Source: Opitutales bacterium (lineage in GTDB: Bacteria; Verrucomicrobiota; Verrucomicrobiia; Opitutales; PNEW01). Taken from it: a DNA stretch of 64,000 nt. The stretch's first letter is position 1. Each line of letters begins with the position of its first letter. This document shows positions 1 through 64,000 of this stretch, in pieces. The position numbers and the translations under genes were made by a program. The notes below the pieces were generated by a model. The model was not told the DNA's origin, did no database searches, and was given only the letters and a program-made list of their open reading frames with translations. Where the stretch lies: NCBI GenBank assembly GCA_965197745.1, contig CBDANS010000007.1, positions 160,001 to 224,000 of the forward strand. Reading direction: 5' to 3'.

Positions 1-113
1 TTCAGTTACATCCTCGTATAGCCTTACTCTTTCTGAAAATTCTGGCAGTGGAGTGACCCCCAAAAATGGTATCATTAACAGAGAGAGGTTATGGGGATAA
101 CCCGATAACCTCA

Positions 114-380
114 ATGAAAAGAAAAGGATATACAACAGAACAGATCATAGCAATACTGCGGCAGCCCGATACGGGCAAAACCGTGCAGGAAGTCTGCCGC
201 GGCAACAACCTAAGTGAACAGACCTTCTATCGCTGGGGCAAAAAGTATGGCAACTTGGAGCTGGCTGATGCGAAGCGATTTAAAGAGCTGGAAAAGGAGA
301 ATACGGAGCTGAAGAAGATGCTCGCTGATCAAATGCTCAAGCTTCGGGTGTTGGAGGAAACGCTCTCAAAAAAATGGTGA
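114..380 (+). CDS. IS3 transposase OrfA (HTH_Tnp_1)
   Basis: MKRKGYTTEQIIAILRQ...EVCR...SEQTFYRW.KKYG...KELEKENTELKKMLAD. A7 slippery run at 368-374 and GTGA overlap with orfB. Confidence 0.9.
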   Translation: MKRKGYTTEQIIAILRQPDTGKTVQEVCRGNNLSEQTFYRWGKKYGNLELADAKRFKELEKENTELKKMLADQMLKLRVLEETLSKKW

Positions 381-809
381 GCCCAAAGCAGAAGAAGCGA
401 GCAGTAAAAGATGCGGCTGAGAAGGGGCTGTGCTCGTTTTAGAGGGCTTGTGCTTATCTCAGCCTCAGTTGGTCAACGTACAGCTACCGACCCAAGCAGG
501 CCAGTAAGAAGGCTCAGCGGTTGGCCGAGCGGATTGTAACCCTGTCCTGGGAACATCCCCGCTACGGTTATCGGCGCATCCGTGCCTTGCTGGTGAAGGA
601 AGGTTGGGCGGCGAGCAGGAAATTTGTACAGGCAGTGCGACGTTCTTCGGGCTTACAGGTAAAGCCACCAAAAAAGCGTAGACACCGTCAAGGAGTCTCT
701 ACAGGGTCGCCTACTAAAGCAACCGGTCGCAATCACCTTTGGTCCTGGGACTTTGTCCATGATCGCACAGACCATGGCGGTCCATTAAAGATGATGACTC
801 TGATCGATG

Positions 810-852
810 TACCGAGGAGCTGAAAGCGACGACACTCAAGCGAAGCGAAGAC
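810..852 (+). repeat. Structured micro-insert 1 (43 nt) in orfB codon ID[E]YTREC
   Basis: GAT G|TACCGAGGAGCTGAAAGCGACGACACTCAAGCGAAGCGAAGAC|A TAT ACG CGT GAA TGT; carries in-frame TGA. Confidence 0.85.
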
Positions 853-980
853 ATATACGCGTGAATGTCTGGATATCCGGGTCGCTCGTGAACTCACCTC
901 ATCGGATGTCCTCTCTGTGCTTAGCGAGGCCATTGAAAAGGAGGGAGCTCCCAGCTATATCCGCAGTGATAATGGCAGTG

Positions 981-1012
981 TTCCGAGGAGCAAAGCGACG
1001 ACATGCGAAGCC
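981..1012 (+). repeat. Structured micro-insert 2 (32 nt) in orfB codon SDNGS[E]F
   Basis: AGT G|TTCCGAGGAGCAAAGCGACGACATGCGAAGCC|A TTT ATC; shifts frame. Confidence 0.85.
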
Positions 1013-1092
1013 ATTTATCGCTCATCAAGTACAGCGGTGGTTGCGTGAAAAAAACATCAAGGCGATATATATCGATCCGGGTAGTCCCTGGC

Positions 1093-1135
1093 TACCGAGC
1101 GAAGCGACACCTCAACGAGCCAAAGCGAGAATAAC
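1093..1135 (+). repeat. Structured micro-insert 3 (43 nt) in orfB codon PGSPW[Q]NG
   Basis: TGG C|TACCGAGCGAAGCGACACCTCAACGAGCCAAAGCGAGAATAAC|A AAC GGT; in frame, visible as LPSEATPQRAKARIT in ORF 807..1202. Confidence 0.85.
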
Positions 1136-1176
1136 AAACGGTTTCATCGAGTCGTTTCACAACCGCTTACGCGATG

Positions 1177-1212
1177 TACCGAGGAACGTAGTGACGACAT
1201 AGCGAAGCGCTC
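1177..1212 (+). repeat. Structured micro-insert 4 (36 nt) in orfB codon RLRD[E]CLN
   Basis: GAT G|TACCGAGGAACGTAGTGACGACATAGCGAAGCGCTC|A TGT TTG AAC; carries in-frame TAG and shifts frame. Confidence 0.85.
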
Positions 1213-1454
1213 ATGTTTGAACCCTGAAGTGTTGCTCAGCGTGGCTGAAGCGCAAGTTCTAATCGAACAATGGCGTCAGACCTATAACAATGAACATCCC
1301 CACCGTCGATCAGGCTTTCAAAGCCCACAAGAGTTTGTCACATTCCTTTCAGATCCTGGCCGCGCCAAGATCTCTCATATACATCAATCCTAAAACCATT
1401 TACACCCGGTAACTCTCTCACTTAATAATTGGTACGAAAAACGGGGTCCGATCA

Positions 1455-1646
1455 CCAGTGCCAGGCCGCTCCCGCAAAATAATTACGGTCATCTTGAACG
1501 AACCTGAATTTATTATATCTTCCCTTTTCCCCCCGGAAACTTTTAAGCTCCTCTGTCTTCTCTTGAAACGCTTCATTTCGTCGAAGTAATTCCCATACCT
1601 TCGCCGGTATGCCGTCCTCACAGGGATTGTAGACTGGTAAGTTCAT
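1455..1646 (-). pseudogene. N-terminus of a gene interrupted by the IS3 element; WELLRRN motif resembles DUF6499-type island regulators
   Basis: ORF runs exactly into the IS right end (the IS supplies the stop). An open frame (LPEFSERVRLYEDVTE) continues at 48..1. Confidence 0.5.
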
Positions 1647-63746: not shown

Positions 63747-63844
63747 TGGCCGGGTCCTATGCAATGTCGTACCGGTGAACTCCGCCAGGCCCGGAAGGGA
63801 GCAACGGTAGCCAGGATTCGCATGTGCCGTAGGGTGCCTGGCCA
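63747..63844 (+). ncRNA. ffs: Signal recognition particle RNA (small type)
   Basis: Domain IV core CCGCCAGGCCCGGAAGGGAGCAACGG; terminal TGGCC/GGCCA pairing. Confidence 0.93.
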
Positions 63845-64000
63845 CTTTTATTTATCTCATTATCTGCCCGGGTAATGTATTTGGTATGGGTATGCATCTT
63901 AAATATTTTATTAACTCCGGGTGAAATCCCTTGTCTTCCCAACCCTTGTCTTTCATATAGTAAATTAACAGACATTGATGGAAGCAGGTTACCAAGTAAT

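Follow-up and report, generated by a model that had tools for sequence, protein, structure and literature searches.

Elements of the IS200/IS605 group insert 3' of a fixed tetra- or pentanucleotide, with no base added or removed. Inserts of another kind, 27–55 nt long and containing stops, reportedly lie inside the coding sequence of functional-looking genes in T4 gene 60 and as the mitochondrial 'byps' of Magnusiomyces. Translational bypass of such inserts needs matching take-off and landing codons. Elhai et al. (2008) are said to have described small dispersed repeats (SDRs) of Nostoc and Anabaena, SDR4–6, which are 21–27 nt long, apparently mobile, and lie within other repeats, within arrays of tandem heptamers and inside transposase genes; we know of no enzyme that moves them. 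Repetitive extragenic palindromes (REPs) are defined by a conserved unpaired tag, GTAG or CGTC, at the foot of the hairpin, and those with the CGTC tag have no known transposase (PMC3733652). The REP-associated tyrosine transposases (RAYTs) of E. coli and S. maltophilia cut between C and T beside the REP, according to PMC8266576, and both papers state that the mechanism by which REPs spread is unknown (PMC8266576, PMC3733652). Here, we describe four inserts of 32–43 nt in the transposase gene of an insertion sequence (IS) of the IS3 family, which lies at the left end of a 64,000-nt stretch of DNA from an Opitutales bacterium (assembly GCA_965197745.1, contig CBDANS010000007.1, positions 160,001–224,000; hereafter the window). 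They are members of a lineage-specific family of very small, REP-like hairpin modules, and their junctions, at which the target is not duplicated and one base is missing relative to a clean insertion, match no described insertion mechanism.

The four inserts, S1 to S4, share a common build (Table 1). Each begins with TWCCGAG at its 5' end, continues with mini-palindromes of the GCGAAGC type and a GAC(G)AC tag, and ends in a final C that is followed by an A. All of them lie in orfB, which encodes the DDE transposase. S1 contains an in-frame TGA and S4 an in-frame TAG, S2 shifts the reading frame, and S3 is without an in-frame stop. Two other IS3 families carry S2 as well, at the identical codon. 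Modules that lie inside IS3-type transposase genes break those genes.

The empty and filled states of the four sites were read from three sets of sequences: (i) an alignment of the 35 near-full-length copies of this IS in the window's genome (family 1), which were collected by blastn and alignment of copy ends; (ii) 24 copies from two sister genomes, G032 and G060; and (iii) Logan contigs of four public runs from three studies. Among the 35 paralogs, S1 is empty in seven, all of which read GATG-AA-TAT, and S2 in three, one with G-AA-TTC and two with G-AG-TTC. S3 is empty in 24 copies, 23 reading C-AA-AAC and one having the CAA codon deleted, while S4 is empty in 26, 25 reading G-AG-TGT and one decayed copy GGA. 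The corresponding filled forms are G[43]ATAT, G[32]ATT(C/T), C[43]AAAC and G[36]ATGT. Empty copies in the sister genomes have GAA at site 1 (n = 8), GAG at site 2 (n = 13), CAA (n = 15) or CAG (n = 1) at site 3, and GAG (n = 19) or CGT (n = 1) at site 4. Run-contig joints at sites 1 and 3 skip 43 bases with 'A' between, the latter in all four runs, and the joint at site 4 skips 37 bases with 'AG' between, also in all four runs. No target duplication is seen at any of the four sites in any of these sets, and every net gain equals the length of the insert minus one. One otherwise typical young copy of the IS (G000 C7:836512-837868) has CAA deleted exactly at insert site 3 (CCCTGG-AACGG), which may be the footprint of a failed or reversed insertion.

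A preliminary description of this DNA had written the junctions as GATG[810-852]ATAT, AGTG[981-1012]ATTT, TGGC[1093-1135]AAAC and GATG[1177-1212]ATGT, and these strings are correct. S1 begins at 810, since base 809, at which the assigned span of 809..1213 opens, is the flanking G. Its reading that target duplications are absent and that the gains are +42, +31, +42 and +35 is upheld by the paralogs, the run contigs and the sister-genome copies. In relatives without inserts, the four sites code for E, E, Q and E, as it had assumed, and not for V, A, L or P; the intact frame of a second IS3 family (family 2) reads LDEYTRE, SDNGSEF, SPWQNGYIESF and REECLN there. The statement that a (G/C)AA codon loses its central A applies at sites 1 (GAA) and 3 (CAA) and fails at sites 2 and 4, where nearly all empty copies have GAG. 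Likewise, three of the four targets had been given as TGAAT, which is the sequence at site 1, is found at site 2 in one of 16 empty copies (TGAGT in the other 15), and is not that of site 4 (TGAGT). The comparisons drawn from the junctions have stood up well: without a target duplication they are unlike DDE-type insertion of transposable elements of the miniature inverted-repeat kind (MITEs), they are one base short of a clean HUH-type insertion such as that of IS200/IS605, and no simple removal of an insert brings back the consensus codon. That they point to a specific chemistry is plausible, with the reservation that many filled sites are copies of few primary events.

The simplest uniform rule is that a module of the form 5'-T...CA-3' takes the place of two target bases, an A and a purine. 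This two-base formula is preferred because it fits S1–S4, and also a site in the frameshift region of family 2, without an extra substitution. Four insert-free family-2 copies are identical to their nearest filled copy (C5_216921) over about 1287 nt, apart from the insert and three adjacent columns, where the empty form reads CCG-AGTTT-ATT and the filled form CCG[32]ATTC-ATT. Whichever alignment is chosen, nothing is duplicated and the filled site has one base fewer than the target plus T...C.

A narrower rule would have the insert, as T...C, replace only the central A of GAA or CAA, with (T/C)G-A-AT as the required target and only GAA-bearing alleles being hit. The empty state does read AA at sites 1 and 3, at the orfA site and at the T-loop-like site listed in Table 1, one empty site-2 copy reads GAATTC, and an A stands 3' of the insert in every context, as a target requirement would give. 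Yet empty copies read GAG in 15 of 16 cases at site 2 and in 44 of 46 at site 4, and those of the frameshift-region site, read on the module's strand, have AG in 33 of 34 cases and CG in the remaining one. Moreover, the family-2 pair described above differs by AG against A, and intergenic modules end in ...CCA whatever comes next. At S2, S4 and the frameshift-region site, either the insert brings its own terminal A or only GAA-bearing alleles are hit. The second option stays compatible with the data, as one filled allele can serve as the source of another; nevertheless, we consider this narrower rule unlikely.

The junction extends well beyond the window's copy. Further sites were sought by scanning for indels of 15–150 nt between repeats, using a self-megablast of the genome that was repeated with fetched loci. 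The minus-one arithmetic proposed from S1–S4 holds at 10 of the 11 informative sites, these four included, and some of the sites lie outside transposase genes (Table 1). Immediately to the left of the lost bases stands G or C at nine sites and A at two. Most sites have lost the dinucleotide AA or AG, and the base that follows is T at six of the eight best-defined ones. Two places are uninformative, namely the site of a 22-nt module after base 1362, which has CG on both sides, and an orfA site at which native ACCGAGC resembles the 5' end of a module. The junction is unusual, well defined and more general than first noted.

Table 1. Coordinates of the IS3-family copy, its inserts and sub-features in the window, and sites elsewhere at which empty and filled forms can be compared (net gain, filled minus empty; inserted sequence in square brackets)
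Feature	Position in window	Strand	Net gain (nt)	Details
Insert S1	810-852	+	+42	43 nt, TACCGAGG...GAAGAC, then A853; codon E of LIDEYTRE
Insert S2	981-1012	+	+31	32 nt, TTCCGAGG...GAAGCC, then A1013; codon E of SDNGSEF
Insert S3	1093-1135	+	+42	43 nt, TACCGAGCGAAGC...AATAAC, then A1136; codon Q of PWQNG
Insert S4	1177-1212	+	+35	36 nt, TACCGAGGAACG...GCGCTC, then A1213; codon E of RLRDECLN
Example of an empty-site sequence				...GATGAATAT...
IS3-family insertion sequence, family 1	49..1454	+		blastn of window 1-1500 against the genome and alignment of copy ends
orfA	115..380	+		likely start ATG at 115, open frame from 66; from ORF list, sequence and translations
A7 slippery run	368-374	+		orfA ends just 3' of the run, at 380
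orfB, DDE transposase, -1 frame	374..1393	+		broken by four inserts and in-frame TAG 440-442
Place of missing module, after base 1362	1355..1372	+		alignments of family-1 and sister-genome copies
Small SRP RNA gene, bacterial	63748-63846			Rfam RF00169, 70.4 bits; sole Rfam match in window
Other IS3, orfA start			+28	AAAGG-(C/A)A-AACG vs AAAGG[TTCACGAGG...CTGACA]AACG
G060 orfA site			+27	copies 3 substitutions apart: GAA-AA-TACC vs GAA[TTCACGAG...GACA]TACC
Family-2 frameshift-region site			+23	module on other strand: TAC-AG-TTTT vs TAC[TACCGAG...ACCA]TTTT
A-run at another IS3 frameshift site			+28	filled copy has one A fewer
Intergenic site			+34	empty CCAC-AA-AAAGC
Divergent module			+41	empty GTG-A-CAGG
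tRNA-like T-loop site				TTCG[module]ATCC in three 3'-half copies; neighbouring true tRNA has TTCGAATCC; T-loop TTCG-A-ATCC

The tRNA-like pieces lie at two loci (G000 C6:355392-355700 and C5:236387-236610), where two extra tRNA 3' halves are found downstream of tRNA-Asn(GTT) and one downstream of tRNA-Gln(CTG). Each of these copies has a long stem (GGCAGGAT...ATCCTGCC) and a 38–40-nt module placed exactly in the T-loop sequence; they may be remnants of att sites or decoys for the modules. Modules also recur at the same phase of tandem CAATCGN heptamer arrays, which are abundant in G000 (CAATCG[module]AATC..., e.g. C6:1221508, C6:955220 and C7:1599728). If these arrays are regular, GC and not an A plus purine would be replaced there.

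The general form of the modules is 5'-T[A/T]CCGAG, a short hairpin, GAC(G)ACA..., and ...CA-3', with a length of about 25–44 nt. The window's genome holds 91 strict modules (TACCGAG-N6-17-GACATC). Most are intergenic, and they often occupy the tandem heptamer arrays or other repeats, or are nested next to a second module. Between the constant arms, the hairpin comes in three unrelated size classes: GCGNAGC, GGGCGAAGCCC-like and TCCCGC-N4-GCGGGA-like. When the 91 modules are analysed with coding and non-coding ones pooled, the mean outer stems measure 1.9, 3.2 and 5.3 bp, against 0.5–0.7 bp in shuffled sequences, and several pair types occur at the same stem position. In both the inserts and the other modules, the tag GACG or GACA lies 3' of the hairpin, which on the other strand is CGTC or TGTC 5' of the hairpin. 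At places such as C6:916447, C7:1497280 and C6:280615, the module core is part of a larger composite repeat, in which TTGCGAGGAGCAACGCGACGCGGC is followed by TACCGAG-hairpin-GACATCTTCCA and then by TTCCAGGCGAAT... The outline of this repeat is TTGCGAGGAGC...GACGCGGC, module, TTCCAGGCGAAT, and its upstream part itself resembles a second module.

The distribution of the modules is narrow. With up to three mismatches allowed, S2 is found in three of 201 Opitutales genomes, all from one taxonomic family (73 matches in G000, 12 in G032 and 14 in G060). An exact S2 scan of 185,579 species' genomes, from which genomes too near the window were excluded, returned one Opitutales record only, a metagenome-assembled genome. 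Of the 201 Opitutales genomes, 28 contain the general module, which is abundant only in the family that also holds S2 (58, 76 and 98 strict copies); eight other genomes have 3–18 copies, against 0–1 for a reversed control pattern. By eye, 10 of 12 bases of S1 are complementary to its own downstream flank; the sequence of S2 is unchanged in families with differing flanks. Literature searches, which did not extend to the 2008 account of SDRs, found no published account of the modules or of their junction.

With the four sites of each family-1 copy written as F (filled) or E (empty), 23 copies have the pattern FFEE, five have FFFF, three each have EEFF and EFFE, and one has EFEF. In family 2, 4 of 40 copies are insert-free and open, alongside at least nine nearly identical filled copies. 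Both family-2 flanking haplotypes (columns 258–259) occur with both the empty and the filled state, which points to repeated conversion or recombination. Two chimeric copies, L005 and L011 (G032:C1:2763901-2766930 and 3995522-3998551), have family-2 sequence to the left of insert 2 and family-1 sequence to its right. Thus, two families with a protein identity of no more than 46% have recombined precisely at a 32-nt insert. Recombination or gene conversion carries the modules from one IS copy to another, also across diverged IS3 families; consequently, independent primary events are few. The insert-free family-2 copies (G000 C7:1900895-1902742 and three sisters) have two orfA haplotypes, in one of which an additional nucleotide joins orfA and orfB in a continuous frame of 415 aa, which can be read without a frameshift and has a scrambled leucine-zipper region.

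Selection on the interrupted genes can be followed between lineages that bear the same inserts. Subfamilies A and B, both with S1 and S2, differ at 93 of 866 orfB positions (dS 0.36, omega 0.16) and at 0 of the 75 bases of the two inserts. Within family 2, omega is 0.15–0.33 in eight pairs, and 34 of 40 copies have no orfB stop or gap beyond the insert. In copies that have decayed, the inserts have decayed as well, differing at 2 of 43 and 7 of 43 positions. The dN/dS values of orfA in subfamily B were set aside as a likely artefact of framing. A recent arrival of the inserts in lineages that had been intact until then is favoured over toleration as the explanation of these figures, on account of the intact family-2 copies, the mixing of haplotypes and states, the L005 and L011 chimeras, and the decay of inserts in decayed copies.

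Toleration would mean that the inserts are removed from the RNA, as tiny introns, or hopped over by the ribosome in the manner of 'byps', and that filled IS copies are autonomous. Such an arrangement would accord with the fact that 0 of 35 family-1 copies are insert-free, that two inserts are the sole orfB defects of eight young copies, that omega is as low as 0.15–0.33 between lineages all bearing inserts, and that the inserts stay identical where their flanks have reached a dS of 0.36. In addition, S1–S4 all begin in the same codon phase (xTA CCG AGG). However, removal of a whole insert restores neither frame nor codon, as the G and A that remain are two bases only. The triplets before the resumed frame are ACA, CCA, ACA and TCA, against CCG upstream, and matching codons are therefore offered at site 2 only, by the pair CCG/CCA. 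Family 2 contains both intact insert-free copies and filled ones that are nearly identical to them, the modules are also found in non-coding DNA and in antisense orientation, and inserts decay in dead copies. Toleration by either route is improbable.

Equally, no dedicated chemistry would be needed if abundant small pieces of hairpin DNA had been captured a few times, at breaks or gaps, by end-joining or template switching with slight resection, and homologous recombination had done the rest. Each site has its own insert variant, common across IS families and genera, and the right flank of the family-2 insert looks like a co-conversion tract (CCG-AGTTT when empty, CCG[32]ATTC when filled). The chimeric IS copies are joined at the insert, and the empty and filled states form a four-gamete pattern with the flanking haplotypes. 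Passive capture should nevertheless lead to variable losses and gains, whereas 10 of 11 sites show minus one with the same 5' T and the same 3' C-A, and the targets share (G/C)-A-R, usually followed by T. Little probability attaches to this explanation. Least of all do we expect the modules to be crossover sites of a site-specific recombination or cassette system with the IS copies as mere carriers: although the TACCGAG-hairpin-GACATCTTCCA core is embedded in the composite repeat and the IS chimeras are joined at the insert, recombination of the serine, tyrosine or integron type conserves its core and loses no base, the junctions cannot be written with a shared core on both sides, and no recombinase is linked to the modules.

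The explanation that we favour, by a slight balance of probability, combines REP-like modules, a base-replacing junction, spread by recombination, multiplication in trans, and insertion by an HUH-type enzyme. Broken IS copies would be multiplied in trans by the few intact ones. Primary insertion would most likely occur on single-stranded DNA, through an HUH tyrosine enzyme that recognises the hairpin. This step would have to cleave the target to either side of one or two nucleotides or, alternatively, make a 3'-staggered cut from which the overhang is lost. To our knowledge, cutting on both sides of 1–2 nt is not described for IS200/IS605 or REP/RAYT. The only candidate enzyme found is a single RAYT-like Y1 protein, encoded by the sole Y1_Tnp gene of the window's genome (C6:163380-163706), which may act on the modules. 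Its full-length ortholog in a sister genome matches Pfam Y1_Tnp with 50.7 bits. Homologs of the protein are present in 59 of the 201 Opitutales genomes, comprising all 11 that have at least three strict modules and 48 of the 190 others, and this co-occurrence is a hint of a link. When junctions are read on the strand that has the tag first, the two bases lost are TT or CT, which is no more than suggestive.

A number of observations weigh against this explanation. With regard to the junction, site N2 departs from the rule (GGC-AA-TCC against GGC[T...TTCC]ATTCC): its gain of +23 is the exact T...C length, and it fits only with a substitution, so the rule is not absolute. With regard to the hairpins, those of the IS-borne inserts are weaker, and nearest-neighbour DNA folding of the + strand rates S1–S4 no better than shuffled sequences (z of +1.5, +0.9, +1.4 and -0.9), in a model that gives no credit to mini-hairpins of the GCGAAGC type. 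Concerning multiplication in trans, no EEEE copy occurs among the 35 family-1 copies of the 92%-complete assembly, and no intact family-1 master is seen among the 24 sister-genome copies either. Purifying selection on orfB between insert-bearing lineages (omega 0.15–0.33) fits tolerance too. As for the enzyme, 'REP-associated tyrosine transposase' is the top NCBIfam match of the full-length sister ortholog, at 66 bits and below the cut-off of 80, and the protein of the window's genome seems to be C-terminally shortened (199 aa, against 341 aa in the sister genome). There is no TWCCGAG module within about 600 nt of its gene, and a TTCCGAG heptamer further downstream looks like a chance occurrence. 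The co-occurrence of modules and Y1 homologs covers about six taxonomic families that are independent, and it may simply follow from genomes being large and rich in repeats. The 91 modules show no replication-strand bias relative to local GC skew (33:25 against 17:16). Lastly, the Y1 chemistry known to us neither removes nor adds target bases.

Other mechanisms were worked through by hand on the sequences. The junctions are not reproduced by a TA duplication, by a serine-recombinase core dinucleotide shared by both daughter strands, by an integron G/TT crossover (cut after the G), or by IS608-type insertion after a fixed tetranucleotide. A reverse transcriptase (PF00078) has no match in the 92%-complete assembly.

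A more far-reaching proposal can be offered tentatively, as a possibility that we rate below an even chance. The modules may be a new kind of ultra-small mobile DNA that swaps exactly one or two target nucleotides (A plus purine) by means of a hairpin-guided HUH enzyme, RAYT-like, or of some other enzyme. Such elements would home to a few IS3 positions and to the T-loop-like sequence TTCGAAT, and would act as natural off-switches of insertion sequences. If this is true, the host lineage, or the modules themselves, would be using modules to disarm insertion sequences.

The host element has the overlapping orfA and orfB, the A7 run, the HTH and DDE domains, and the motifs SDNGSXF and PWXNGFIESF of the IS3 family. 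Pfam domains are recognised on the surviving pieces of orfB, HTH_21 at 521-808 and rve_3 at 1217-1393. When orfB of the window's copy is read with an X for each insert, it forms a frame of 289 codons with a single extra stop, at codon 22. Read in this way, 8 of the 35 family-1 copies, all young, are open across all 289 codons. Another 16, including the window's, carry one further stop (TAG at codon 22), and the last 11 show different or multiple stops or frameshifts, the majority being visibly decayed. The TAG at 440-442 (LCSF-stop-RACAY) is thus present in 16 of the 24 copies that have at most that one extra orfB stop, and these 16 copies are dead even apart from their inserts. The eight copies of subfamily B, which are open throughout, have CTT/CGG at this position.

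The window's copy is also singular near its right end. A 22-nt module in reverse orientation (CGTTCGGGCTACGCCCTCACTK) stands after base 1362 in all 33 other copies that align there and in the sister-genome copies, and it is absent from the window's copy only, probably because it was deleted secondarily between CG repeats. Family 2, where the frame is open, translates this stretch as RATPSLR. The public-run contigs have loose ends at 1362-1364 and two further, differing sequences at 1363.

Among known systems, REPs and small dispersed repeats are those that the modules resemble most in the way they work, and they share much with REPs and RAYTs. Published accounts describe hairpin repeats of 20–40 nt that have a conserved unpaired tag by the stem, occur in tens to about 100 copies and may lie in genes (Di Nocera et al. 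2013, PMC3733652; Corneloup et al. 2021, PMC8266576; Nunvar et al. 2010, PMC2817692), and here, too, a RAYT-like Y1 gene is present in the genome. Like REPs, the modules have a short palindromic stem-loop, as judged from the set of 91, and a tetranucleotide tag at the foot of the hairpin. Because this tag reads CGTC or TGTC before the hairpin on the other strand, they come near the 'CGTC-tagged' REPs. They differ from REPs in their long conserved 5' arm (TWCCGAG), their ...CA 3' end, their fixed positions in transposase genes, and their clean filled/empty pairs, which show the loss of one or two target bases. Cleavage between C and T, as described for the RAYTs in PMC8266576, does not reproduce the module junctions. 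Nor are the modules members of a REPtron as defined, since the rayt gene is not flanked by REPs: the Y1 gene stands without flanking modules. From SDR4–6, the modules differ in phylum, in sequence and in their length of 25–44 nt.

IS200/IS605 elements and the miniature forms derived from them (PATEs) likewise carry subterminal hairpins, leave the target unduplicated and travel as single-stranded DNA with a Y1 HUH enzyme, as PMC2817692 describes. In contrast, filled module sites are one base short (at 10 of 11 sites) and show no replication-strand bias, and on account of the lost base the modules are not IS200/IS605 derivatives. DDE MITEs such as Correia and RUP are also small non-autonomous inserts that can land in genes. 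The modules, with ends TWCCGAG... and ...CA, have no terminal inverted repeats and no duplication at S1–S4, and so they are not MITEs. No attC boxes of integrons (RYYYAAC ... GTTRRRY) were seen on reading S1–S4; no search for an IntI gene was made. Unlike bypass elements, S1–S4 offer neither restoration of frame or codon nor matching codons, except for the pair at site 2, and modules also lie in non-coding DNA and in antisense orientation.

What is new here is the junction rule as tested on true empty sites, its amendment to T...CA, and the evidence for spread by recombination. Many clean filled/empty pairs exist in known sequence, some of which differ by nothing else, and this is rare for such repeats. 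The system illustrates that very small inserts can inactivate the majority of copies in several IS families, with the mobility of a family maintained by a small number of intact copies. Any enzyme proposed for it must reproduce a precise junction, with no duplication and with one or two target bases replaced.

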